From: Eledone cirrhosa
Taxonomy: Eukaryota
Direction: 5' to 3'
Assembly: GCA_964016885.1 (NCBI GenBank)
Contig: OZ024742.1
Span: 289,168,001-289,232,000, forward strand
DNA length: 64,000 nucleotides
In this document: positions 5,091 to 61,818 of the stretch, piece by piece
Layout of the letters: the number at the start of each line of letters is the position of its first letter
Numbering within the stretch: the stretch's first letter is position 1
The notes under the pieces: model-generated
Database searches by the model: none
What the model was told of the DNA's origin: nothing
What the model saw: the letters and a program-made list of their open reading frames with translations, nothing else
Translations under genes and position numbers: made by a program

Positions 5091-5217
5091 ATAAATATAA
5101 ACACTTTAAAACAAGTAGTTTTGTCTCATAGATCCAGGGGCATTTTCAAGTGGTTTGGTATCAAAAGGGCTAAATTTTATTTAAAATTTATAAGAATTAA
5201 TTTATTTCTATTTTCAG

Positions 5218-6927
5218 ATTGGTTACCATGTTAGATTTGACAACTGTTGTGATGCTGAAACTACGAGTGTCAACTTTCTAACTGATGGAATGTTGATTCA
5301 AGAGATTTTTTCTGACCCTCTACTTACTAAATACAGTGTAGTTATGTTGGATGAAGCACATGAACGTACACAACATACAGATATCCTTATTGGCCTCCTC
5401 AAAAAGATTCTACTCCGACGCAAGGACCTGCATGTCATTATTGCCTCAGCAACACTTGATGCTGCTGAAGTTAAAAACTTTTTCAATAGCAACTTAACAA
5501 GTGACCCCAAGCTGGACACTTCCTCAATTCTTAGTATTGAAGGACGAGGATATCCAGTGGACATTCACTACTCCATTGATCCACTTCCAAACTATGTCCA
5601 GGCAACTGTAGAGACAATTCTAAAGATTCACAATAATGAAGGCCCTGGAGATATTCTAGCTTTCCTCACTGGTCAAGATGAGGTTGAAACAGTTGTCCAC
5701 CAGTTGATACAAGAAGCTAGAAAAATGGGCAAAGATGTTCAGATGAAAATGAAAGTGTTACGAATGTATGGAAGTTTACCTGCATCGGAACAGCTAAAGG
5801 TATTTGATAGAACAGCAAAAACTACACGGAAAATTGTAGTTGCTACAAATATTGCTGAGACTTCCGTAACAATTCATGGTATTGTTTTTGTCGTTGATTG
5901 TGGTTTTGTCAAACTGCGAGCTTTTAATGCTGAAACTGGTGTTGAAGGGTTAATCACTGTGCCGATATCTCAGGCATCTGCTGACCAAAGAGCAGGGCGA
6001 GCTGGTCGTGTGCGTCCTGGAAAAGCATTCCGACTCTACCCAGAATCAGAGTATAATAAGTTGAAAGCAGCAACTGTTCCTGAAATACAACGCAGTGAAA
6101 TGTCCCATGTTATATTACAGTTAAAGGCATTAGGAGTGAAAAATGTGCTCAGGTTTAATTTTCTCTCTGCTCCACCAGCTGCAAATATGTTGCACAGCTT
6201 AGAACTTCTCTATGCACTTGGTGCACTTGATGATGATGGAGACCTAACATCACCACTTGGTATGAACATGGTGGAATTTCCCCTATCACCAATGTTTGCT
6301 AAAATGCTTCTAACAGCTGCAGATTTTGAATGCACGGAAGAAGCGTTAACCATTGCTGCTATGATGCAGATTGAGAATGTGTTTGTGTCTCCTGGTAATG
6401 AAAAAAAAGCTGCTGAAAGAGCAAAAACCAAGTTTAGCGTCCAGGAAGGGGACCACATCACCATGGTCAATGTTTATAATGCTTTCTTAGAACACAATAA
6501 GAACAACCAGTGGTGTGGGGAAAATTATTTAAACTTGAAGGGGCTGAATCGGGCTTGCACCATCCGTGATCAACTGATGCAGATGTTGAAAAAATATAAA
6601 ATTCCATTAGTGTCATGTGGAATTAAGACTGAAGCATTGCAGCGATGCATAACTGCAGCTTTCTTTGCAAATGCTGCTCGTTTGCACTATGACGGAACCT
6701 ACCACACTATACGACACAATCACTGCTTGTACATCCACCCTACATCGGTACTGTATACAGAAAAACCACCTCAATGGGTGGTGTTTAATGAGGTTATACA
6801 AACAGGCAAGGACTATATGAGAGATATTACAGCTATCCGACCTGATTGGTTGTGTGAACTGGCACCACAATTCTTTCAGTTTGGGACAGAGTCAGAAATT
6901 GCCAAAAAAAGGTCCAAGTTTAATTGA
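5218..6927 (+). CDS. DHX35: DEAH-box RNA helicase DHX35, exon 2 (to stop)
   Basis: Acceptor ttttcag|ATT at 5217/5218, in frame (IGYHVRFD...TDGML); DEAHER, SATL, ATNIAETSVTI, QRAGRAGR, HA2 and OB-fold regions; TGA at 6925-6927; 698 aa joined. Confidence 0.93.
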   Translation: MGYHVRFDNCCDAETTSVNFLTDGMLIQEIFSDPLLTKYSVVMLDEAHERTQHTDILIGLLKKILLRRKDLHVIIASATLDAAEVKNFFNSNLTSDPKLDTSSILSIEGRGYPVDIHYSIDPLPNYVQATVETILKIHNNEGPGDILAFLTGQDEVETVVHQLIQEARKMGKDVQMKMKVLRMYGSLPASEQLKVFDRTAKTTRKIVVATNIAETSVTIHGIVFVVDCGFVKLRAFNAETGVEGLITVPISQASADQRAGRAGRVRPGKAFRLYPESEYNKLKAATVPEIQRSEMSHVILQLKALGVKNVLRFNFLSAPPAANMLHSLELLYALGALDDDGDLTSPLGMNMVEFPLSPMFAKMLLTAADFECTEEALTIAAMMQIENVFVSPGNEKKAAERAKTKFSVQEGDHITMVNVYNAFLEHNKNNQWCGENYLNLKGLNRACTIRDQLMQMLKKYKIPLVSCGIKTEALQRCITAAFFANAARLHYDGTYHTIRHNHCLYIHPTSVLYTEKPPQWVVFNEVIQTGKDYMRDITAIRPDWLCELAPQFFQFGTESEIAKKRSKFN

Positions 6928-14570: not shown

Positions 14571-15192
14571 CATATACACTGAAGTGGTCAAGCTTTGTAT
14601 TGAGCTGACAACCAGTATATATATATGTGTGTCATTATTATCACCGTTTTACGTCCATTCTTCCATGCTAGCATGGGTTAGACAGGTTGTCTTGTTGTGG
14701 GCAATGCCAGATCGGGTGACCTTGTCTTGTTCATATGGAAACTGATTTTGGCTTGATTTCTACAGCTAGATGCCCTTCCTAACACCAACCTCATTTACAG
14801 TAAGTACTGGCTGCTTTTTTGCCATGGCATCTACACGATCACTTTACAGTGTGAGCTGGGTGTTTTTTTGTCGTGACACCTCCACGACAATTTTGCAGTG
14901 AGAGGGGATGGGGGCATATTGTCTATATGCTTCAGCTTTGGCTTGTACCTGTGGGAAGTTGGGTCTTCTGTATTACTGTGTGATGCCAGAGGTCACAGTC
15001 CTGTATATATATATATATATATATATAAAATTAGAATTGGTGCTCTGAAATAGCGATATATATATGAATGTATATATAGTGTATTTTGCAACACACTGTA
15101 TGCTTAATTAAAAGCATTTTGAAGACCATACGCTATTGTTTTAAAGTAGCGACATTGTCGCTTACTTAAATTTTTGGCAGACAGGGGGAGAT

Positions 15193-15237
15193 AAGTTGAC
15201 AGCGCTGTTTCGTACTTTTTGGTACTTGTCAAAACTC
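15193..15237 (-). ncRNA. Type I hammerhead ribozyme, U3-A8 core variant (copy A)
   Basis: Minus strand: gagtt UUGACAA gtac-caaaaa-gtac GAAA cagcgctg UC aactt; stems I and II pair and stem III is palindromic. Confidence 0.72.
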
Positions 15238-15348
15238 AATACTCTCCCCGTCTGCCGAAAATTATGTGTTGGGTTCTTATAGAATTCCAGTAACAATCAG
15301 GAACTGATTTTACAGAGCGGTCGCCGGCCCAGCAAAAATTGAAAATTA

Positions 15349-15393
15349 GAATTGACAGCGCTGTTTCGTACTTTTTGGTACTTATCAAAACTC
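15349..15393 (-). ncRNA. Type I hammerhead ribozyme, U3-A8 core variant (copy B)
   Basis: Minus strand: gagtt UUGAUAA gtac-caaaaa-gtac GAAA cagcgctg UC aattc. Confidence 0.72.
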
Positions 15394-16119
15394 ACGGCCA
15401 CCGCTCTGTAAAATCAGTTCCTGATTACATAATTTATGTACTAAATTTCGTACTAAATTTTGTAACTAAATTTCGTTAACATAAATAATTTAAAATTGAC
15501 TTCTTTTCAAAATTCAAATTTCTACACTTCCGGTATATCGTCGCCACCACCACCACATCAACTACCATATATATAGAAAGAGAGAGTGTGTGATGAAAGA
15601 GATAGAGAGATTATGATTTTCTACACGCTGACGCGTATGAGTGTGCACATACATGCATCTATATGTATGAGTATATAACTATTATGAGTATATAACTATA
15701 ATCGCGCAAACATAAACTTATAAAATTACATGGACATACATTCACACAAATACACATACTTTCACACAAACATTCATACATTTACACAAACACATAGTCA
15801 TGATAGCAGCGTTCGGTGAATTGGAAATGGGAGGGTAAAACAAGTATAACGTTTTATTTATTTATTAACTCTTTATTTATTTATTAACTCTTTTTTTTTT
15901 AAACTCATTTAATATAATGGTTACAGAACGAAAACACTAACAAATATAATATATACAAAGGAAAGGGAAAGGAAAAAAAGAAAGAGAAAAATACACAAGC
16001 AGGTAATACACACATCTTAGACCCCAGAACAATATGCAGGCAAAAGAGTGGGAAAACGAGCCACTACCAGAGCAAAAGATAGCAATATAGCGAGGAGCAC
16101 TGGGAAACCTCTCTAATAA

Positions 16120-16560
16120 TTTTTGAGGCAGGCCAGCATGCTCGCAACGTTACCTGGGGTGATGGCGACGCTGAGGTGCTAGAACAACTAAGTGCATGCA
16201 CGAGCATCACCAGTTACCTCTGTTTGGCGAGCCGCCAGTGAAGATAAGAATCTCGCTGTCAGTAGCCTGACTCTCCCACACATCTTGAACGCCACAGGCT
16301 AGATAATGTAGTTAGCTGACAGAGCATGGTATTTTAGGATTTTGTTCCGTTCAGCTGCGGATGCTGTAGCCCTTACCGCTGCATCCAGAATATGGGAAGA
16401 AGCAAAAGAGTCACTAACTGTGATGTCCCAGGTAAGGCACCTGCCTCTTGACCAGGAGCACAGAGTAAGACCGTCAAGTCTTTTCCCATCAATTCAGGAC
16501 AACCTAGACGGTTCCAAAATTGAGGGGATGTTTGCCTGGGCCAAAGCTCTTGAGTGGTAA
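16120..16560 (-). mobile_element. CRE-like non-LTR retrotransposon 3' fragment (RLE domain)
   Basis: Minus translation DGLTLCSWSRGRCLTWDITVSDSFASS...AAERNKILKYHAL. Confidence 0.7.
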
Positions 16561-16699
16561 TAGGACAGTGTGTGTATGTGCGTGCGTGTGAGTTTATCAG
16601 CGTTCTTAAATAAATGTGTGTGTGTCACTGTTTTTAAGTCAGACATATGTATGTGTGTATCCTTTCCTTTCTTTTACACACACATACATTCACACATAC

Positions 16700-17352
16700 A
16701 CATTGCGTGATGGACGGGTGGACAGAAGTCCCTCAAATTTAGTTCAAGTATCTTGGGGCCATGTTCATGAGTGATGGAATGCAGGAGGCTGAATTAAATG
16801 CAAGAATTGCAAAAGCTGATGCAGTAATGCGCCAGCCTCAGCATTCAGCAATCAGATGGGGGGGGGGGTGTGTAAAAGCCAAACTCGCTGTCTTCCTGGT
16901 GTTCCTGCCAACTCTTACCGAGGATCATGAATCTTGAGTAATGACCAAAAGAATACAATTGCAAATAAAAGCGGCAGAAATGGGATTCCTCCGAAGGGTC
17001 TTTGGAGTAACGTTACCCGATAAAGTGCATAACTCAGAGACCAGAGAGTTACTCCTGGTAGAGCCGCTACTTCTCCGAATTGAGAGATCACAACTCCGAT
17101 ATTATGAGCATGTGGTTAGAATATCTCAGTAAAGAATTGCTGGACACATTTTACAGGCAAAACCAACCGGCAAGAGACCCAGAGGTAGACCCTGAGCAAG
17201 ATAGTTGGATAACATTCATGAGCTTGGCTGGTCACACTTTGGGATCCAGCTGGATCAGTTAGAGATGTTTGCTACTGACAGACTCGCTGAAAGGAGTGTT
17301 TGAGAAGGACTCTGCCTCCACGACCCTCTCAGAAATAAGTGGGTGAAGAAGA
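16700..17352 (+). mobile_element. Degenerate RTE LINE 3' fragment
   Basis: FKYLG..., IKAAEMGFLRRVFGVTLPDKVHNSETRELL...IERSQLRYYEHVVRI; (GAA)n end. Confidence 0.75.
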
Positions 17353-17649
17353 TATTGTCAATTTACATATATATATTTGCATATAATACCAATATGCACA
17401 CTACATATGCTAGCAGAAAACCCCCCGAGGGCGGTTCTTCTGCTAGTATATATAATGGAAACTGCTGAATCCCTCTATTGCTACTCAGAGTTTCTCATTG
17501 TCCAGTCAAGATTTCACTGTTCAATAAATTTTCATCAGATTAATTTATCGATTTCATTGATCTAATATCAATTTAGATCAATTAGCACAGACATTGCTAC
17601 ATATTCAACATGGCCGACAATCTAAACTTCCGCCATTACACAGTTACAG

Positions 17650-20189: not shown

Positions 20190-21389
20190 TATTGTTATTG
20201 TTGTTGCAGTTGTTGTTTGTGTTGGCAGTATTGTTAATGATGGCAGGAGTGTTGGTGATGGTGTTGTTGGTGGTGTTGTTGTTGGTGATGGTGTTGGTGG
20301 TATTGATGATGGTAGGGGTGTTGGCGGTGTTGTTAGTGGCATTGTTGATGATGGTAGGAGTGTTGGTAGAGATGTTGGTGGTATTGTTGATGATGGTGGG
20401 GGTGTTGATGGCATTGTTGTTAGTGGTGTTGATGTGATGGTGGGAGTGTTAGTGGTGTTGTTGGTAGAGATGTTGGTGGTATTGTTGATGATGGTGGGGG
20501 TGTTGATGGCATTGTTGTTAGTGGTATTGTTGTGATGGTGGGAGTGTTAGTGGTGTTGTTGGTAGAGATGTTGGTGGTATTGTTGATGATGGTGGGGGTG
20601 TTGATGGCATTGTTGTTAGTGGTATTGTTGTGATGGTGGGAGTGTTAGTGGTGTTGTTGGTAGAGATGTTGGTGGTATTGTTGATGATGGTGGGGGTGTT
20701 GATGGCATTGTTGTTAGTGGTATTGTTGTGATGGTGGGAGTGTTAGTGGTGTTGTTGGTAGAGATGTTGGTGGTATTGTTGATGATGGTGGGGGTGTTGA
20801 TGGCATTGTTGTGATGGTGGGAGTGTTAGTGGTGTTGTTGGTACAACACCAACACCAACTCCACCAACACCACCAAGAACACCAACAACAACAACAACAC
20901 TACCACCACCAACAACAACATTAACACCAGCAACACCAACATCACCACTAACAACAACTATAACACCAACACCATCATCAACAACAACATTAACACTGGC
21001 ACCACCACCAACAACAACAACATTAACACCAACACCAACAACACCACCACCAACATCACCACTACCACCACCATCACCAACAACAACACCACCACCACCA
21101 AGACCACCACCATCACCAACAACACCACCTCCACTACCAACACCAACACCACCAACACCACCACCAACACCACCACCAACATCAACACTACCACCATCAA
21201 CACTACCACCACCACCACCACCACCACCACCATCAACACCACCGCCACCACCAACAATAAGCAATAAAGTTGCTTGTTGATACCAAATACCAGCCAAGGT
21301 TGCTGCTAATCGATATAAAAAGCCAATAGCTGCTTGGTTCTTGTAAAACATCGATATATTCATGGCTGATGTTACAACAACAACAACAA

Positions 21390-26004: not shown

Positions 26005-27745
26005 GCATATTTACAGTGAGTACTGGGTGCTTTTTGTCGTGACACCTACACAACCACTTCACAGTGTGGGCTGGGTGCTTTTTGTCGTGACACCTACACA
26101 ACCACTTCACAGTGTGGGCTGGGTGCTTTTTGTCGTGACACCTACACAACCACTTCACAGTGTGGGCTGGGTGCTTTTTGTCGTGAGACCTACACAACCA
26201 CTTCACAGTGTGGGCTGGGTGCTTTTTGTCATGAGACCTACACAACCACTTCACAGTGTGGGCTGGGTGCTTTTTGTCGTGAGACCTACACAACCACTTC
26301 ACAGTGTGGGCTGGGTGCTTTTTGTCGTGAGACATACACAACCACTTCACAGTGTGGGCTGGGTGCTTTTTGTCGTGACACCTACACAACCACTTCACAG
26401 TGTGGGCTGGGTGCTTTTTGTAGTGAGACCTATACGACTACTTTACAGTGTGGGCTGGGTGCTTTTTGTCGTGACACCTACACAACCACTTCACAGTGTG
26501 GGCTGGGTGCTTTTTGTCATGACACCTACACAACCACTTCACAGTGTGGGCTGGGTGCTTTTTGTCGTGACACCTACACAACCACTTTACAGTGTGCGCT
26601 GGGTGCTTTTTGTCGTGAGACCTATACGACCACTTCACAGTGTGGGCTGGGTGCTTTTTGTCGTGAGACCTACACAACCACTTCACAGTGTGGGCTGGGT
26701 GCTTTTTGTCGTGAGACCTACACAACCACTTCACAGTGTGGGCTGGGTGCTTTTTGTCGTGACACCTACACAACCACTTCACAGTGTGGGCTGGGTGCTT
26801 TTTGTCGTGAGACCTACACAACCACTTCACAGTGTGGGCTGGGTGCTTTTTGTCATGAGACCTACACAACCACTTCACAGTGTGGGCTGGGTGCTTTTTG
26901 TCGTGAGACCTACACAACCACTTCACAGTGTGGGCTGGGTGCTTTTTGTCGTGAGACATACACAACCACTTCACAGTGTGGGCTGGGTGCTTTTTGTCGT
27001 GACACCTACACAACCACTTCACAGTGTGGGCTGGGTGCTTTTTGTAGTGAGACCTATACGACTACTTTACAGTGTGGGCTGGGTGCTTTTTGTCGTGACA
27101 CCTACACAACCACTTCACAGTGTGGGCTGGGTGCTTTTTGTCATGACACCTACACAACCACTTCACAGTGTGGGCTGGGTGCTTTTTGTCGTGACACCTA
27201 CACAACCACTTTACAGTGTGCGCTGGGTGCTTTTTGTCGTGAGACCTATACGACCACTTCACAGTGTGGGCTGGGTGCTTTTTGTCGTGAGACCTACACA
27301 ACCACTTCACAGTGTGGGCTGGGTGCTTTTTGTCGTGAGACCTACACAACCACTTCACAGTGTGGGCTGGGTACTTTTTGTCGTGAGACCTATACGACCA
27401 CTTTACAGTGTGGGCTGGATAAATTTCGTCATGACACCTACTCAACCACTTTACAGTGTGGGCTGGGTGCTTTTTATCATGACACCTATACAACCACTTT
27501 ACAGTGTGGGCTGGGTGCTTTTTGTCGTGAGATCTATATGACCACTTTACCGTGTATACTGGGTGCTTTTTGTTGTGAAACCTACATGACCACTTTCCAG
27601 TGTGGCCTGGGTGTTTTGTGTCGTGACACATACACGACTACTTTACAGTGTGGGCTGGGTGCTTTTTGTTGTGACACCTACACAAACACTTCACAATGTG
27701 GACTGGGTGTTTTTGTTGTGACACCTACATGACCACTTTACAGTA
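26005..27745. repeat. 39-bp minisatellite (~44 units) expanded inside an RTE/SINE 3' tail
   Basis: Unit cacagtgtgggctgggtgctttttgtcgtgacacctacacaaccactt-like; begins directly after the tail sequence at 25855-26010. Confidence 0.95.
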
Positions 27746-29292: not shown

Positions 29293-30752
29293 TGTCATCA
29301 TCATCATCATCATCATCATCATCGTTTAACGTCCATGTTCCACGCTTGCATGGGTTTGGACAGGAGTTTTCCCACTTGAGGCAAGAGTGGTTGTCTTGCT
29401 CGCATAGGACTGTCTGGCGGGTTTTCTACAGCTGGATGCCCTTCCTAACACCAACCACATTTACAGTGTGGGGCTGGGAGGTTTTTACCGTGTTGCCTAC
29501 ACGGCCACATTACAGCGTGGACTGTCTGGCGGGTTTTCTACAGCTGGATGCCCTACCTAACACCAACCACATTTACAGTGTGGGGCTGGGAGGTTTTTAC
29601 CATGTTGCCTACACGGCCACATTACAGCGTGGACTGTCTGGCGGGTTTTCTACAGCTGGATGCCCTTCCTAACACCAACCACATTTACAGTGTGGGACTG
29701 GGAGGTTTTACCGTGTTGCCTACACGGCCACATTACAGCGTGGACTGTGTGTTTTTTGTCGTGACACCTACACGATCTCATTTGTTTCGGCCTGGATGTT
29801 GTGGCACCAACATAACTTTACATTGAAAGGGGCGGTGTGGATGGGGTGGGGGGTGTATTTTGTTAGAGATGCCTACTGACTGTAGTAGGTTTTACTTTGT
29901 ATTTAGGTAAGGCGGGTCTTCTCTATTACTGAGTACCGCCAAAGGTCTCGGTCCAGTGACATTGTCTTGGAGAGGTGTAAGTGTGTGAGGTCAGAATTTA
30001 TCAGCTCGTCCCAGGTTTTTCTGGGTTTGCCTACTCTGTGGCTACCATCTATCTTTATTGCCCTGCACCTTGTTATACAACTGTCGTCTTTCATGCGCAT
30101 CACGTGACCATACCAACGTAGCCTTCTTTCGAGTAAACAACATCTGATCCCTCTTATTTCTAATTTTTTCCTTAGTTCGTTTATGCTTTGCCGTTCACGT
30201 ATATTACTATTATACATCCAGCGGAGCATGCAAGCTTCGTTCCTCTCTAGTCTGCGTATATCCTCTGCACACAATGCCCAGGTCTCACTGCCATGCAACA
30301 TTGCTGTTCGTATGCAGGCATCGTACAACCTGCCTTTCATTTTTAGGGAGAACCCTTTAGCGGCTAATAGTGGTATAAGCTCTCTGAACTTTTTCCATCC
30401 AGTTCTGACTCTAGCTACTGTACTTTCGGAGCACCCTCCTCCACTGCTGATTTTGTCACCCAGGTAACGGAAGCTGTCCACTATTTCTATAGAACCCTCT
30501 GCGCAATTGAAAGAGCTAGTATTTTGTGGGCACTTGCTGCTACTTATTGCACCAGAGCACCGGCCACATGTAAAATCCATGTTCTTAGTTAGCTTACCTG
30601 TGATCCCACTACATCTTTTATGCACCCATACTTTGCATTTGGGACATAAAATGGAGTTTCTACCTACGCCTTTCCTACACACTGAGCATGGCCACTTCCC
30701 GGAAGGGACCGCCGCCTTATTTTCTTTCTTACAAACTAGAACTTTAGTCTTA
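29293..30752 (-). mobile_element. 5'-truncated young RTE LINE copy (PHD + thumb + 3' UTR) adjoining the PLE fragment
   Basis: 259-aa ORF nearly identical to the C-terminus of the 54924 ORF; (CAT)n tail; 112-bp triplication in the 3' UTR. Confidence 0.92.
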
Positions 30753-31738
30753 GCGTGTGTGGTTATGTGTTTGCGTTTTGTATTTGGTGTTATGGTGTAT
30801 GTTGGTAGGTTATTTTCTTGAGAGATTCTTTTGTAGTTGATTTTATGTATGATATATATATATATAATTATATCTGTATAAATACAGAATGAGTAACTGA
30901 GACTGCACCAATGTGTATAAATATATAGACATATCTAATATGTAGGAATGTAAACATACCAGAAAGTACAAATTTTCCTGTAAATTGATAAAAATGATAA
31001 ACACCTTTAATTGATTTTCGGATCTTATTGACCCTTTTCAAAAGACTTGTATATCATCCAAAAATACATGAAGACCATCATCAATAACCAAAGGACAGCT
31101 GAGGAGGAATGTGCCATTGAGAAAATCAAACTCAATTCCAAAGTGTTCTTTTAATTTGTGAAGAAACACAAGGTGTTTTTTGTCGTGACACCTACACGAT
31201 CTCATTTGTTTTGGCCCTCTGATTGATGAAAATGGCACTCTCCAAGACAATGCTAAAACCATGGATGAGATACTACAGAAACAGGGCTGCTCTATTTTCA
31301 GCAATCCTGATATGAAATCATCAGTTCTAGTCCTATGGAAGTTCTTTCTATATATAATAAAGCTGCCTGTACTCTACCAACATACCAAGTACCTTTTTTA
31401 ACTGTGGTTACCCACCCCCTATCCCCCAACATCATCCAGAGAGGAGGACCTACATACATATATATATATATGTCATCATCATCATCACCGTTTTACGTCC
31501 GTTCTTCCACGCTAGCATGGGTTAGACGGATATATATATATGTATATATATATATATAGTCTGTATATTCTCCGCAGTTGAGTACTTATCTCAGGATACT
31601 TCAAGATCTACCAGTTGGAGTGTTGGATACAATACCATAATTGGTTGGTTTCCTGCATATAATATGAATATTTATATACACACGTTTATATAGAGTGTGT
31701 GATTGTATGTATACATGTATATATATATATATATATAT

Positions 31739-44699: not shown

Positions 44700-46390
44700 T
44701 TTACATCTGTTTCTCTATGCTTATAAGGGTTGAAAAATTGATGGAGTTGCTTTTCGATATGACATTGAGCTTTACCATAGTAGAAGTGGCCAGGGCAAGT
44801 CTTGTCAGTATCTCCTTTTGAAATCTGCTATCTTTGGTTACAGTGGATGGTAGGTACTTGAAGGTGTCCACATCTTCAAGTCTTCCTCTGTTCAGCATGA
44901 TGTTGGTTGCTATATTCTAATTATTACTATTAACCAGAATCTTGCTCTTTTCTGAGCTGATCTCCATTCCATATGCCCCTGATACTTTTTCCAGTCAGGT
45001 AGTGAGCTCTTGGAGTTCTGCTTCACTGCTTCCTAACAGGTCAATGTCATCAGCAAATCGCGGGTTGGAAATGGGCAGAGGTGTGGAAGTCCTGGAGAGT
45101 CTCTTGCATGATGTTTTCCAGTAAGATGTTGAAAATCACTGAAGAAAGGAGACACCTTTGTTGAAATCCCACTGTTGTTCTGAAGAATTCTCCAATGTTG
45201 TTATTCAGGAGAACTGCACTGCTTGAGTTGTCATATAGTACTTTAATTACTTGAATGAGGTTGATGTCAAAATTGTAACCCTTCATCACCTTCCATAAAC
45301 TCTCATGCCAAACACGGTCAAAGGCTTTTTTAAAGTTGATGAAGATATGATAGAGGTCAGATTGGTGCTGTAGGTGTTTCTCAGTAAGAAGCCTGATGTA
45401 AAATATTTGCTCTGTTGTACTTTTTGGGGAGCCTGGATTCTGCCTGTTCTTCTGCCTTTCCCTTAACACTATAGCCTTTACATTAATTTATATTTATTAC
45501 TGTATTTTCACGGTAAAGGCTTTATCTCACATAATATTGAATCTATGACATTTTGATATTTATTTTGAGAACAATACCTTAACATCACTATGAATGGCTG
45601 GTTGCGGCCAGTTTGAACAGAAAGAATTCTGGCTGGATACAGCTGATTTGAAAGCTAAAGGGTTAAGTCTGTTTAGAAACACTCTTAGCAGTACTTGGCT
45701 GGGGTGGCTAATTAGGCTAATAGTTCTGTAGTTCTGGCAGAGTCTTAATTTCCTTTTTGGGGAATGGGTATCATTAGTTATTGGGTCCACTTCTTTGTTT
45801 CCCATATCTTCTGACAGGTAATTGATAAGTTTTGGCCCTCCATGCCTTTAGGAGCTCTGATGGAATGTTATTGACTCAAGGGGTTTACCATCTTTGAGCA
45901 TGTACACTGCCTCTTCAACTTCCTCCTGGAGATTTGGAGTATCTTCAATTTCATTGTTCTTATTGGTAGAATTGTCCTAGATGTTGATGTCATGTCTGTG
46001 TTTGTGGTTATAAAGGTCTTCACAATATTCAGACCATCTTTTGATGACATCAGCCTCGTCTGTGAGGAGGAAGCCAGTTTTGTCCTCAATGGCAGTGGTG
46101 GTGTGTTGCTTTCTTTTTATTAGCATTTTGAGGGTTTCATAAGCAGCCTTGTTGTTGCCCCCCCTTTTTTTAAAATTCCAGTTTCGATGTTTTTACACTG
46201 GTCTGATATCCACTTCTCTTTGGGTTCCCTCATTTTCTTCTCGACCTTCCAATTCACAGTATTTTATTGTTGTTAAATCACAGGGGTCCACGGGGACCCA
46301 TGGTTTATTTTTCCTTTCCTGTCTTCCCGACACTTCCTAAGCTGTTTCATGAAGTACTTCCTTGATGTTGTCGGTTAAAGAGTTAATAAA
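44700..46390 (-). mobile_element. Old RTE LINE RT fragments interrupted by a MITE at ~45470-45666
   Basis: CQNYRTISLISHPSQVLLRV; STTEQIFYIRLLTEKHLQHQ..FINFKKAFDRVWH; RLEDVDTFKYL. Confidence 0.8.
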
Positions 46391-54858: not shown

Positions 54859-54912
54859 AATATATAAGAACAAAAGATGGTTATATATATATATTTATAT
54901 AAATATATAAAT

Positions 54913-57900
54913 ATAGAACTACGGTGACAGTAATATCTGCGTACGCACCCCAATCCGGACTGCCCGGCACTATAAAAGACAGATTCTATGAGACACTGAT
55001 GCTAACTACCTCCCAAATATCCGACAGTGACTATATAATTATCGCAGGCGACCTAAATGGTCACGTTGGACAACATTGTGACGGCTACGACGAAATCCAT
55101 GGAGGCTATGGGTTTGGTACTAGAAATGAGGAAGGCTCCAGAATCCTGGAATTCTGTGATGCAAATAACCTAACTATCTGTAACACTAACTTCAAAAAAC
55201 GTGACAATCACCTGATCACCTATAGATCCGGGGAACACACAAGCCAGGTAGATTATATCCTTACCAGAAGACGTGACAGAGTGTCTGTTGTTAACACTAA
55301 ATCCCTCCCCCATGAAGAATGCACCTCCCAACATAGACTGATAATTAGCGACCTCATAGTCAGGACGAGACGTACTCGACAACAGAAGAGGACTATCCTC
55401 AGGAGGAAAATATGGAAGCTAAAGGACCCCACAGCCAGGAATAAATTTCAAAGCATATTACTTGATGCTTTCGACAGTAAGGAAGAACATTTAGAGTCGG
55501 ACAATATAGAGGGAGAGTGGGAATTTCTGAAAGCAAACCTGCTGTTGGCGACAGACGAGGTCTGTGGCTGGAGCAGGCCTGTAGGCAGGAGGAGAGTAAC
55601 ATGGTGGTGGAACAGTAAGGTGGAGGGGTCAATTAAGGCCAAAAAGCAGGCTTGGAAAGTATGGCGGGATGGGGGAAGTAGAGAGGACTATCAAGTGGCC
55701 AGGAGGGAAGCTAGGAGACAAGTGTACTTAGCAAGAAGGGAAGCTGAGGAAAGAAAGTTCAAGCATGTTCTACAACGCGATGACCAAAAACGTGAGGTGT
55801 TCAGGATTGCTAGGCAATGCGTCAAGGAAAACCGTGATATTGTCGGGGAGAAGTGTGTACTAAACGACGATGGCACACTTGCCATCACCGACGCTGATAA
55901 GAAGGTAGCTTGGAAGTGTCACTATGAAAGGCTTCTAAATGAGGAGAATAATTGGGAGAAAGGCAGTCTCCCCCATATCGACCCAATAGAGGGACCAGCA
56001 GTGTTAGTCGAGGGGAGTATAATAAGTAAGGCAATCAAGGATATGAAGACTGGTAAGGCGGCTGGGCCTTCGGAAATAGTTGCTGAGATGCTGAAGGCAT
56101 CTGGCACGGTGGGACACACCATGGTCACCCGCATAGTTAACCAAGTCGTACAAAACGGGGTTGTTCCGAAGGACTGGCATAGCAGCATCATCGTTAACTG
56201 TTATAAGGGTAAAGGAGACGCCCTAGATAGGAGTAACTATAGAGGCATTAAATTAATCGACCAGGTCATGAAGGTCACGGAAAGAGTAATAGCGCAACTA
56301 ATCAGAGAGAGAATTGACCTAGATGAAATGCAGTTCGGGTTTGTGTCAGGCAAAAGTACCACAGACGCTCTTTTCATAGTACGACAACTACAAGAGAAGT
56401 ACCTAGCTAAAGGTAAACCCCTCTACTTAGCTTTTGTCGACTTGGAGAAAGCCTTCGACAGAGTCCCCCGCTCCATTATCTGGTGGGCTCTTAGAAAACT
56501 AGGCGTTGACGAATGGCTTGTGAGGGCTATACAAGCCATGTATAAAGAAACAGTCAGCAAGGTTAGAATTAACAACGAATATAGTGAAGAGTTTAGCGTA
56601 AAAGTCGGCGTCCATCAGGGCTCTGTTCTCAGTCCACTACTATTTATTATTGCCCTTCAGGCCATAACAGAGGAGTTCAAGACAGGCTGCCCATGGGAAC
56701 TCCTATACGCAGACGACCTGACACTCATAGCGGAATCAATGGCCGAGCTAGAGAAGAAATTCCAAACATGGAAGCACGGCCTAGAGTCAAAAGGACTTAA
56801 AATTAACCTGGCTAAGACCAAAGTACTAGTTTGTAGGAAAGAAAACAAGGCGGCGGTCCCTTCTGGGAAATGGTCGTGCTCGGTGTGTAGGAAAGGCGTA
56901 GGTAGAAACTCCATTTTATGTCCTAAATGCAAAGTATGGGTGCATAAAAGATGTAGTGGGATCACAGGTAGGCTAACTAAGAACATAGATTTTACATGTG
57001 GCCGGTGCTCTGGTGCAATAAGTAGCAGCAAGTGCCCACAAACTACTAGCTCTTTCAATTGCGCAGAGGGTTCTATAGAAATAGTGGACAGCTTCCGTTA
57101 CCTGGGCGATAAAATCAGCAGTGGGGGAGGGTGCTCTGAAAGTACTGTAGCTAGAGTCAGAACTGGTTGGAAAAAGTTCAGAGAGCTTATACCACTATTA
57201 GCTGCTAAAGGGTTCTCACTAAAAATGAAAGGCAGGTTGTACGATGCCTGCATACGAACAGCAATGCTGCATGGCAGTGAGACCTGGGCATTGTGTGCAG
57301 AGGATATACGCAGACTAGAGAGGAACGAAGCTTGCATGCTCCGCTGGATGTGTAACAGTAATATACGTGAACGGCAAAGCATAAACGAACTAAGGAATAA
57401 ATTAGAGATAAGAGGGATCAGATGTTGTTTACTCGAGAGAAGGCTACGTTGGTATGGACACGTGATGCGCATGAAAGTCGATAGCTGTATAACAAAGTGC
57501 AGGGCAATAAAGATAGACGGTAGTCACGGAATAGGCAGACCTAGAAAAACCTGGGACGAGCTGATAAACTCCGACATCACACACTTACACCTCTCCAAGA
57601 CAATGTCACTGGACCGAGACCTTTGGCGGTACTCAGTAACAGAGAAGACCCGCCTTACCTAAATATATAGTAAAACCTACTCCAGCCAGTAGGCATCTCT
57701 AACAAATACACCCCGTCCCACCACCCCCACCCGATCCACACCACCCCGTTCTATGTAAAGTTATGTTGGTGCCGCGCCATCGAGGCCGAAACAAATGAGA
57801 TCGTGTAGGTGTCACGACAAAAAAACACACAGTCCACGCTGTAATGTGGCCGTGTAGGCAACACGGTAAAAACCTCCCAGACCCACACTGTAAATGTGGT

Positions 57901-59052: not shown

Positions 59053-61818
59053 TCAGGTGTAGTTTTGGCGTATTTCGGGAAGCATGAGTGTCTTAAAGGA
59101 TGCAGTGTCTCGGCAGCTAACAACTGATGCAGGCAGTTTGTTCCATGCTTCAGCAACTCTGAGCGTGAAAAAATGTCTACGAAAGTCATGGGAGCTGTGC
59201 TGTTTTCTGATTTTGTAGGCATGTCCACGTGTGTTAGAGACATGGAGATCAAAAAGGTGCTCAGGGTTGCAATTGGCGAGATGGTTAATAACTTTGTGGG
59301 TATTTACCAAGTCCATTGCCAGACGTCGGAGCTTCAATGAATCCATGCCCAGAGAAGCAAGGCGTTCAGAGTATGGTAGGTGTCTGATGGAGGGTATGCG
59401 CTTGGTTGCACGTCTCTGAACAGTTTCCAGGAGGTCAATGTTCTGAGCAAGATAGGGGTTCCAGACTGATGATGCGAATTCCAAGTGTGGTCGTACCATA
59501 GCTGTATACAGTTTTAAATAGATGGCTGGAGAGCGGCTAACAAAGGTCTTGCTGAGTGATGCCAAAACACCCTCGGCCTTCTTGACAATCTTAGAGACAT
59601 GCTTTGTCCAACGCAAATCGCTGCTGACAGTAATGCCCAGGTCACGTTCACAAGAGGACTTCTTGATATCAGTGTTGTGGAGGGAGTATGTGGACGTTGG
59701 ATTTTTCCTCCCAAAATGCATGGTGGTACACTTGTCCACAGCCAGCTTCAGTTGCCAGTCTGTGATCCATTGCTGCATTGTGTCCAGGTCTGATTGTAGG
59801 AAAGAGTTGTAGATTTCAGGATCAGTCCTTTTGATTTCAAGGTACAGCTTGATGTCATCTGCATATTTCAGTACCGTGGCATTCTGTAAGTTGGCATCTA
59901 TGTCATTAATATATGCCACAAACAAAAGGGGACCAAGAACAGATCCCTGTGGTACACCAGATGACATCTCATATGGTGAAGAATGCTGTCCTAGAACCGT
60001 GACTACTTCTTTTCGGCTGAGAATGAAGGATTTCAACCAGTCGAAAAGATCATCCCTCACACCCATTGCAGAGAGTTTTGCCATAAATCTTTTGTGTGGC
60101 ACAGAATTAAAAGCCTTAGCAAAGTCAAGGTAAACAACATCCACCCATGAGCCGCTGTCAGTGATCCGGGTGATGTCTTCAAGGAACTCGATAAGCTGAT
60201 CACAGCAGCTGGAGTTAGGGATAATTCCAAACTGTGAGGGCCGGATGAGGCTGTGAGGGCTCCAGAAGTTCCAAAGTGTTTCTCTGACACAGGATTCCAT
60301 CAGTTTGGCCATACAGCTAGTAAGACTGACTGGATGATAGATGACAGGTGACATGTGGTTGCCCTTTTTGAACAGGGGAATGACACTGGCAGTTTTCCAC
60401 CACTCCGGAGTAGCACCATTGTTGAGACAGTATTGAAAGAAGAAAGAAAGCTGGCGCAAAAGGAAATACCCGCCACGTTTGAGAAGCAGGTATGTAACAC
60501 CATCAAGACCAGGGGAGGCATAGTTGCGCTTATTCTTAAGGTGACGTCGCAACATTGCAGGTGTAAATTCCATAGCTGTTATGGAATTTGATGTTAGAGA
60601 TGGTGGAGATGGTACATTCTGGTTTTCAACAGTAAAAATACTTGCATAGCACTCAGCAATGAGTTCTGCGCATTCTTTGGGATCGTCAGTGATCTGGCTT
60701 GTGTGGGGATTGCGAAGAGGACCAACTGGAGAGTGAGGTCTCTGCTTTGAATGAACATATTTCCAGAACACCTTACTGTCAGGATTGGTTGCTATGCACT
60801 GTTCAAATTCAAGCACTGCTTTCTTTGTCACTTGCTTGAAATGGTTAGAAGATTTATTCCGCTTTTTTCTGTTGGCATCTGATTTATGCAGTTTATATTC
60901 CCGTTCAGCGTTCCGACGTTCTTTCCTGGCAAGTCGGACCGCTGAAGTTTCCCAAATTGCACTTTTGGGGTGGGTTTTTTTCTGCTTACGTGGCACCGAT
61001 GCTGCACACGCTATCTATATTGAGTCCAGAATGCTCTGGAGTATAGTGTTCACATCTCCAGAGTTATACATCTCATGCCAGTTTGGGCGCTGTAGCTCAG
61101 TGCAGTACAAGTTCCAATCTGCTCTCTTCCAATCAAAGCAAGCAGATTGGAGATGGCTCTGGTTTTTGTTGCTGCCCTCAAGTGCCAGATTGGCAATGAT
61201 CATAGCATGATCAGAGTTGCCTAGAGGTTCCTCAGTAGTACAACTGATAACCACTTCAGGAGTAGTGGTGAAGATCAGGTCCAAAGTGTTGTCACCTCTT
61301 GTTGGAGAGGTGACTACTTGTGACCAGTTTGAGTTCAGCACTAGTTCAAGGAAATCGTTTGCACCTTGTGGCCAACAAAAGGTTTCCCAATCGATCTCAG
61401 GATGATTGAAGTCACCTGCAATAAACACATAAGTGGCTGTTTTCTTGGCAGCAACTCTGAGGATATCGCAAAGCTGTGTGTCCTGATGTTAGTTTGGGGG
61501 GCGATAAACAACACCAAGCAGAAGTGTTGACATGGTCATACGTATGTCACAGAAAAAAACTTCTTCCTGTGATTCGTTCAAATCAACGCAAGGAATTACC
61601 GAAAAGTTTGAACGAACGTAGACCATCACACCACCACCACGGCGATTAATGCGGTCCTTGCGGAAAAGGTTGTACCCAGTAATGCTGAAAACCCCATCAC
61701 AGAGTAAGGAATGTGCCCATGTTTCTGTGACTGTGATGAAGTCAGGGTCGATGCTTCTGACGTAGGATTCAAACAGATGTATCTTGTTGCATAAACTGCG
61801 AGCATTTAAGGACAACAA
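59053..61818 (-). pseudogene. CR1 ORF2 (APE + RT) interrupted by stops at ~61489 and ~61015
   Basis: ORFs 61489-61818, 61015-61428 and 59053-60996 are all in one frame. Confidence 0.88.

Follow-up and report, generated by a model that had tools for sequence, protein, structure and literature searches.

The pair of hammerhead motifs analyzed here very probably stems from a 315-bp tandem repeat that has one hammerhead per unit and more than a thousand copies in the genome, namely a non-LTR retrozyme that was likely inserted into a (TA)n microsatellite by the RT-endonuclease of a Penelope-like element (PLE). On this reading, the copy at the locus is rearranged and likely inactive. The pair itself probably arose by a local accident and does not seem to constitute a new kind of RNA module, and the repeat represents a new non-LTR retrozyme family. 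Coordinates refer to the window, which is the whole analyzed stretch of 64,000 nucleotides of Eledone cirrhosa DNA (contig OZ024742.1, positions 289,168,001 to 289,232,000).

Sequence and Fold of the Two Hammerhead Motifs

Two 43-nt copies of the motif were located on the minus strand at 15196-15238 and 15352-15394, with an identity of 98% and a spacing of 156 nt. The hammerhead motif search gave two matches in the window and none in 100 shuffles, which agreed with the earlier note, where a motif of about 45 nt had been described twice on the minus strand, 156 nt apart. The numbering of hammerhead positions, like the role of the 3-8 pair, is standard background. Both copies were read as GAGUU-UUGA(C/U)AA-GUAC CAAAAA GUAC-GAAA-CAGCGCUG-UC, in which position 7 was the sole core difference; the U3-A8 core claimed for both copies, differing at this position only, was confirmed in the sequence. 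The layout was that of a type I hammerhead in which the 3-8 pair is U-A and a palindrome of 10 nt spans stem III, and the type I core (core positions 3-9, GAAA, UH and a Watson-Crick 3-8 pair) was present as UUGANAA/GAAA/UC in both window copies. The 3' core runs from 15232 to 15198 on the minus strand (U3 at 15232, A8 at 15227, C17 at 15198), and its cleavage is predicted between 15198 and 15197 on the same strand. The 5' core lies within 15352..15394, also on the minus strand, with U3 at 15388 and C17 at 15354. The role of the 3-8 pair is supported by the C3G/G8C rescue that is cited in the available part of PMC11167929.

The 3' copy, at 15169..15263 on the minus strand, is the type I hammerhead of the family itself, which was recognized by compensatory changes in stems I and II and in the 3-8 pair across subfamilies. 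The long stem I of this copy contains an internal loop, and the GGCAGAC/GGGGAG helix around it was predicted by folding. For the 3' copy, the active fold lay 3.5 kcal/mol higher than the minimum-energy fold, and for the 5' copy the gap was 5.2 kcal/mol. An inverted repeat was found with 32-nt arms at 15295-15326 and 15395-15426, which were 97% complementary and perfectly paired over the outer 27 bp. The folding z value of the region was -8.2, a score inflated by the inverted duplication. Of the long closing helices reported earlier, the GGCAGAC/GGGGAG pairing was retained as a prediction and the 27 bp were indeed perfect, but the 27-bp stem was a piece of the inverted repeat.

The minimal PLE hammerhead (min-HHR), which PMC4209133 defines by a long stem II preceded by a bulged base, a short stem I and at most a slight stem III, was ruled out by the 4-bp stem II, the lack of a bulge and the long covarying stem I. 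The earlier assignment to a minimal type I hammerhead had to be dropped as well, as the 3' copy has the canonical layout, with a 4-bp stem II, no bulged base and a long looped stem I. The affinity with PLEs and retrozymes that had been drawn from the palindromic stem III was sound, and the two motifs are genuine hammerhead-type structures with U3-A8. An Rfam/Infernal-type search, which had been proposed as a check, found HH9 at sub-threshold scores only (18-25 bits vs. 52), and the matches to microRNA hairpins were spurious.

Repeat Unit, Copy Number, and Tandem Arrays

The genome (3.0 Gb) was searched with 15150-15450, and 2,540 candidates were obtained, of which the best of 40 scored matched from 15354 downward at 92-96% identity. 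Compared with 29 fetched loci, the shared unit at 15354-15027 was found to repeat head to tail, with 315 bp and a 13-bp overlap. The segment at 15027..15354 (minus strand, numbered m1-m328) consists of a full retrozyme unit of 315 bp (15354-15040) and 13 bp of the next round (15039-15027), is 92-96% identical to the best genomic copies, and had six differences from the column majority over m1-299. The 3' hammerhead is the single ribozyme of the 315-bp non-coding unit at 15354-15040. The natural unit is a tandem monomer of 315-320 nt with one ribozyme each. The family showed the traits of a non-LTR retrozyme, namely a non-coding tandem unit within about 150-450 bp that carries one type I hammerhead, a low GC content (37% for the unit) and a self-paired monomer (-81.2 kcal/mol for the 315-nt unit as a circle, z -5.6 against 100 shuffles).

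A count of genome copies, also proposed earlier, gave 994 exact matches for the U3-A8 core pattern and 466 matches for the C3-G8 core pattern, with 0 for each control. The C3-G8 core was encountered in a diverged copy (L063) met by chance; all 30 fetched C3-G8 loci aligned to the unit at 70-97%, and most of them shared the tail. The normal head-to-tail junction, GAGCAC/CAATTCTAATTTTCAATTT, had 1,302 exact occurrences in the genome. Moreover, one array (L143, G000:C1:82390459-82395953) comprised 16 full and 2 partial units with a period of about 318 bp, and the 11 cores that passed the motif filter were all spaced at multiples of about 318 bp. The 16-unit array with cores at multiples of the period indicates that the family has one ribozyme per unit and forms simple tandems. 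The view that the locus does not fit a simple tandem retrozyme was hence abandoned, since simple tandem arrays are formed by the family (L143 and the 1,302 junctions).

The neighboring units of L143 were just 85-93% identical, and their GCAC/GUGC stem II was a compensatory variant. Several subfamilies retain the closed unit. At another locus (L016), a single insertion contained a head-to-tail junction between units of subfamilies A and B that differ by 15%, which suggests template switching or a mixed array.

Covariation and Selection on the Ribozyme

A total of 83 family rows were listed, with U3-A8 in 46, C3-G8 in 34 and a mismatch in 3, and most of their loci had been recruited by patterns that fix the 3-8 pair. 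The alignment contained the window copy and 48 of the 83 rows, which were picked by hand; near-duplicates, 5'-truncated rows and the 3 mismatched rows were left out. Over the 25 named pairs in these 49 rows, 94% of the cells were paired, and two-sided changes occurred in 12 of the 25 pairs. The middle of stem I was not included when pairs were counted, as the subfamilies are offset there by one alignment column. The covariation score was reached in 0 of 500 shuffles, and the slid controls paired at 31-47%. The three helices of a type I hammerhead with an open stem I were found in the 49-row alignment, and the first pair of stem II was non-standard in 14 of the 49 rows. Subfamilies with 70-85% identity shared an invariant core and differed by compensatory changes in stem I, in stem II and in the 3-8 pair, and stem III was near-palindromic in all subfamilies. 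This near-palindromic form fits the dimer-assisted cleavage of animal type I hammerheads, as described in the available parts of PMC4209133 and PMC7229834.

The invariant core and the compensatory changes in the stems and at 3-8 imply, as judged from the alignment, that the ribozyme was selected in the source elements. Conservation of the core and of the 3-8 covariation among homologues, which the earlier note had set as a check, was observed in that 80 of the 83 rows, mostly recruited by pattern, had U-A or C-G. The counts represent a handful of subfamilies and not independent events, and the recruitment of most loci fixed the 3-8 pair. The history of this homologous family is therefore best read as a single C-G/U-A switch or a few of them, together with several swaps in stems I and II. 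In the C3-G8 subfamilies (L106-L135), the first pair of stem II, usually G-C, was often U.U or A-U, together with a 5-nt loop 2.

Mosaic Structure and History of the Locus

The locus was composed of three pieces of the unit, which were m1-328, m117-159 just upstream of it, and m29-60 in inverted orientation further upstream. The second piece (43 bp, 15352..15394, minus strand) carries the 5' hammerhead core and is joined to m1 via a shared CAA, and m160-318 (159 bp) is absent between the two. According to the unit alignment, the inverted piece m29-60 (15395..15426, plus strand) is the upstream arm of the 27-bp stem, and the downstream arm is m29-60 inside the full unit (15295..15326, minus strand). 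The stem is thus m29-60 inverted upstream of the unit, so that an inversion in the DNA merely looks like a long helix when taken as RNA; what had been assumed to be a locking helix is part of the repeat in inverted orientation. The PLE-type tail m300-328 (15027..15055, minus strand, by unit alignment) ends in TTCTAAT(TTT) before the target, a (TA)n microsatellite at 15004..15026 (no strand assigned). This target lies at the 3' end of the insertion, as read in the sequence, and 45 of 50 tail ends of the family enter (TA)n.

On the other side, the inverted 32 bp adjoins a different repeat, for which there were 1,733 genome candidates. This unrelated flanking repeat of about 2 kb (15424..17450, no strand assigned, far end approximate) was delimited by its genome copies, and its first ~100 bp are absent here. 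All five copies examined extend past 15424, by about 100 bp, and one reaches (TA)n. Both sides of the break at 15424 share ATT. In other copies, the flanking repeat (15424 to about 17450) starts beside (TA)n. On the 3' side of the insertion, the segment 14632-15004 belongs to another dispersed repeat, which is 65-90% identical to pieces in many fetched loci.

The simplest history would be a normal inverted partial-tandem insertion in (TA)n that was trimmed twice. The locus likely started in the usual arrangement of an inverted copy, m117-328, m14-328 and (TA)n. Since m157-159 and m316-318 are both CAA, a loss of 159 bp turns the spacing of 315 into 156. Such a loss at the CAA microhomology, by later deletion or by polymerase slip during insertion, would have brought the ribozymes from 315 to 156 nt apart. 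A second loss, at the ATT microhomology, likely removed about 100 bp of the neighboring repeat and shortened a once longer inverted copy to the present 32 bp. The order and timing given here are those that the present sequence suggests.

The earlier note had regarded the pair as a structured RNA unit under selection. The defining junction, ribozyme-GTC/AATTCTAATTTT, was found once in 3.0 Gb, both exactly and with one mismatch allowed, vs. 1,302 normal junctions, which is contrary to this proposal. It is extremely improbable that the two ribozymes make up a selected module that is cut twice and sets free a functional circle of 156 nt. Two cuts per transcript are possible, in that both cores are intact, a stem I of 5 bp (GAGUU/AAUUC) is still available to the 5' copy, and dimer pairing is open to the palindromes (duplex of -16.9 kcal/mol). 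However, the module has only one genome copy, every base of it is a piece of the ordinary unit, and the active fold of its 5' copy lies 5.2 kcal/mol above the minimum. The 156-nt piece as a circle had -23.2 kcal/mol and a z of +0.85 (100 shuffles) against -5.6 for the unit; hence, the released circle that had been predicted has no fold above that of shuffles. The intact cores were assessed with 34 subfamily-A copies, which had been picked by body sequence. The divergence was 10/408 (2.5%) in the core vs. 144/4925 (2.9%) in the body, and 24 of the 34 copies had intact cores. Genomic copies thus decay neutrally with 24 of 34 cores intact, so that two intact cores here need no selection and are expected by chance.

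The junction might also have been made during insertion, if the RT finished one round and jumped onto the 3' end of hammerhead-cleaved RNA. In that case, the locus would document cleavage in vivo and the origin of a shorter unit, but we consider this quite improbable. The join does span the predicted cleavage site (C17^AA), and the two cores fit different variants (G-TGAGTT with U7, 25/34, for the 5' core and C7, 8/34, for the 3' core). However, the 3-nt microhomology explains the join, and one later point mutation explains position 7. The break pattern was found 2 times at the cleavage site vs. 10 at the control position, as raw counts without denominators; there was no excess of breaks, although about 8 of the 10 control matches look like 1-nt indels or substitutions. 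One of the two cleavage-site matches resembles a microhomology deletion at a repeated CTGTCA. A jump onto cleaved RNA ends as a recurring event was rejected on the same counts, in which breaks were not enriched. The twice-trimmed insertion was retained as the preferred history.

Insertion Footprint of the Family

The 90 unit loci were reduced by 13 that were overlapping, duplicate or from the window itself, which left 77 non-overlapping loci. A head-to-tail junction was present in 57 of the 77, a share that is inflated because L002-L030 were picked for covering m1, and both orientations were present in 47 of the 77. The outer ends of the 77 loci fell at m323-328 (50), m284-305 (58) or elsewhere (16). 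Among the 47 inverted loci, a tail end was combined with a short end in 32, two tails occurred in 0, two short ends in 1, and one irregular end in 14. Hence, a tail of about 27 bp was found at exactly one end in 32 of the 47. The tail (long) ends entered (TA)n in 45 of 50 cases, and the short end sits in an internal TA run, which blurs its position. In the same-template comparison for rolling-circle copying, 17 of 34 direct pairs and 14 of 27 inverted pairs were within the closest tenth of other copies, a result confounded by subfamilies.

A partial tandem, an inverted copy and a one-sided tail constitute the PLE insertion layout in the available part of PMC8557442. The PLE tail lies between two internal RT start sites and is called unique to PLEs in the accessible part of PMC11167929. 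The family displayed the partial tandem (57/77), the inverted upstream copy (47/77) and the one-ended tail (32/47) of a PLE-mobilized insertion. A plant LTR retrozyme, with type III hammerheads in LTRs and a 4-bp target duplication, was ruled out by the type I topology, the tandem units and the (TA)n ends.

Penelope-Like Elements as Possible Drivers

The genome contained 10,596 GIY-YIG candidates, of which 150 were scored. PLEs with RT, GIY-YIG and a CX4CxxC linker, as in Neptune/Nematis, were present, and one locus (L092) had a 938-aa frame. Autonomous PLEs thus co-occur with the family, as is expected for non-LTR retrozymes. The 938-aa locus (G000:C1:145866500-145876400) belongs to a Neptune-type family, N1, which was also seen in L093, L098, L101, L102 and L105. 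The terminal repeats of N1 are direct and carry a compact U3-A8 hammerhead; the family has two 3' ends, separated by about 65 nt, and a (TA)n target, and it ends in TTCTAAT|(AT)n like the retrozyme unit. N1 and the unit share 7 nt at the 3' end, part of which merges with the target, and the N1 tail (~65 nt) is longer than that of the unit. U3-A8 cores were carried by two PLE families, N1 and one more. At least four more types of hammerhead were seen in PLE terminal repeats at L062-L105, one with U3-A8 and others with C3-G8 and UU or UA at the cut, and further PLE families were seen in L146-L148.

A comparison of the unit with 44 PLE loci of the 10,596 candidates revealed no autonomous PLE whose terminal repeats are homologous to it. 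The unit matched 3 of these 44 loci, which were read as separate neighboring insertions, as were 3 more PLE-adjacent loci. Similarly, a PLE protein searched against the 77 unit loci and the array flanks gave 3 tblastn matches, which were separate neighboring insertions. In the window, tblastn with a PLE protein from the same genome gave no match to a PLE ORF, and 3 ORFs within about 4 kb of the pair matched no family in the Pfam scan, in agreement with the earlier remark that no ORF is linked to the motifs. An autonomous PLE at the locus, with an RT and GIY-YIG ORF between terminal repeats, was rejected in view of this lack of a PLE protein match in the window. As no longer homology was found between the unit and the PLE repeats examined, we infer the driver, for which N1 might, tentatively, be put forward as the best candidate.

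In the proposed mechanism, tandem copies are likely transcribed, and cleavage at GUC^ is predicted for the single type I hammerhead of each unit, in which the palindrome of stem III would assist by pairing in a dimer. Cleavage would yield 315-320-nt monomers, which may be circularized by a host ligase in the manner described in the available part of PMC7229834. A PLE protein likely nicks (TA)n, and the RT likely starts inside the RNA at two neighboring sites, at about m299 and about m325. Priming at two sites would account for the partial tandems, for the upstream copy in inverted orientation and for a tail on one side only. The unit, its copy numbers, the mosaic, the geometry of the ends, the covariation and the presence of PLEs were observed directly. 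We infer the transcription of tandems, cleavage, circles and PLE-primed copying from the families involved, and likewise the order of the losses.

Two other accounts of the footprint were weighed. The PLE-mobilized family may move as uncut multimeric transcripts, in which the ribozyme matters little and no circle is formed. This account is unlikely but carries some weight, because internal RT initiation needs no free 3' end and arrays such as L143 exist as templates. In addition, lizard PLE insertion in vitro was unaffected by hammerhead mutants and RNA-seq ends at the lizard PLE cut site were not observed, both in the accessible part of PMC11167929, and 8 of 9 Xenopus retrozyme dimers gave no cleavage in the part available of bioRxiv 10.64898/2026.07.22.740005. 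However, the invariant core and the compensatory changes in stem I, stem II and 3-8 imply ribozyme selection in the sources, and related retrozymes of coral, mussel and axolotl give circles according to the available text of PMC7229834. The units may otherwise be orphan terminal repeats of an autonomous PLE and not a self-standing element. The insertion layout is as in PLEs, hammerheads that stand alone or on the opposite strand are known as debris of PLEs (PMC4209133), and the PLE search covered 150 scored of the 10,596 GIY-YIG candidates. Nevertheless, this origin appears highly improbable, since the tail of the unit runs into the start of the unit at 1,302 exact junctions and in the 16-unit array, a PLE frame running into the unit was seen in 0 of 77 loci (the 3 tblastn matches being separate insertions), and several subfamilies keep the closed unit. 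A self-standing retrozyme likely inserted by PLE proteins was retained as the preferred reading.

Other Features of the Window

An unbroken 577-aa frame of a DEAH-box RNA helicase with Helicase_C, HA2 and OB domains was observed at 5194-6927 (plus strand), and it may be either a large exon or a retrocopy. LINE-type frames were located at 54903-57662 (plus strand, 919 aa, with an endonuclease, RT and PHD finger) and at 59053-61014 (minus strand, 653 aa, RT). A LINE-type RT fragment was located at 45050-45487 (minus strand), and a LINE-type PHD-finger frame at 29903-30934 (minus strand). A 48-bp satellite occupied 26023-27744 with 36 copies at 92% identity. At 20250-21257, a TGT/GGT-rich tract was directly followed by a CAA/CAC-rich tract, i.e., simple repeats of opposite strands lay back to back.

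Significance and Comparison With Known Systems

U3-A8 hammerheads and non-LTR retrozymes, including a proposed PLE origin of the latter, are already published. The flagged pair itself is of little weight, and it is the family that bears on which enzyme moves animal retrozymes. PLEs were named as candidate movers of retrozymes in the available part of PMC7229834. For Xenopus, co-occurrence with PLEs and terminal-repeat homology were described, and the life-cycle evidence was called limited, in the accessible part of bioRxiv 10.64898/2026.07.22.740005. The insertion footprint of the present family would be useful evidence that PLE proteins move retrozymes. Moreover, the PLE signature at dozens of loci and the two likely start sites mapped on a 315-nt RNA make trans-mobilization testable in vitro, and the family offers natural variants of the ribozyme, C3-G8 as well as U3-A8, whose stems II and III vary on a single scaffold. 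It is an evenly balanced proposition, in our judgment, that the family is a retrozyme with a PLE-only footprint (two internal starts, one-sided tail, inversion and (TA)n) and a 3-8 change from C-G to U-A within one lineage, for which N1, with its near-complete ORF, U3-A8 and TTCTAAT, would be a ready partner for showing PLE trans-retrotransposition. No earlier description of the family or of a retrozyme tail footprint was found in the literature searched; the family may already be catalogued in repeat libraries or supplements.

Metazoan non-LTR retrozymes were described as non-coding tandem units of 150-450 bp with a GC content below 45% (Cervera and de la Pena, 2020, PMC7229834; Li et al., bioRxiv 10.64898/2026.07.22.740005; both in the parts available). 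The present family resembles them in its non-coding tandem unit (here 315-320 bp), its GC content of 37% and its range from monomers to multimers. It also has one canonical type I hammerhead per unit, the cleavage of which is here predicted, and PLEs in the same genome. Unlike the non-LTR retrozymes in the available text of these reports, it has U3-A8 in its largest subfamilies beside C3-G8 sister subfamilies. Furthermore, its strong (TA)n targeting with inversion and a one-sided tail is unreported in those parts of the published accounts.

The Cercyon PLEs of Schistosoma mansoni have U3-A8 hammerheads with about 1,300 matches (Cervera and de la Pena, 2014, PMC4209133, as partly available), and the same part of the report describes opposite-strand hammerhead pairs 100-700 bp apart. 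The 3-8 core pair covaries in the present family as it does there. The Cercyon hammerheads, as that text presents them, are minimal and lie in PLE terminal repeats, with a stem II of 7-8 bp, a bulged base and a short stem I, whereas the present family has a 4-bp stem II, a long stem I, a palindromic stem III of 3-4 bp and a non-coding unit. In contrast to EN+ PLEs (Neptune/Nematis), the family has no ORF, and its terminal-repeat homology to the examined families consists of the 7 terminal bases shared with N1. It is like these elements, as portrayed in the accessible parts of PMC8557442 and PMC11167929, in its partial tandems, inverted 5'-truncated copy and one-sided tail, in its (TA)n target, and in the position of the hammerhead 130-210 nt from the 3' end.
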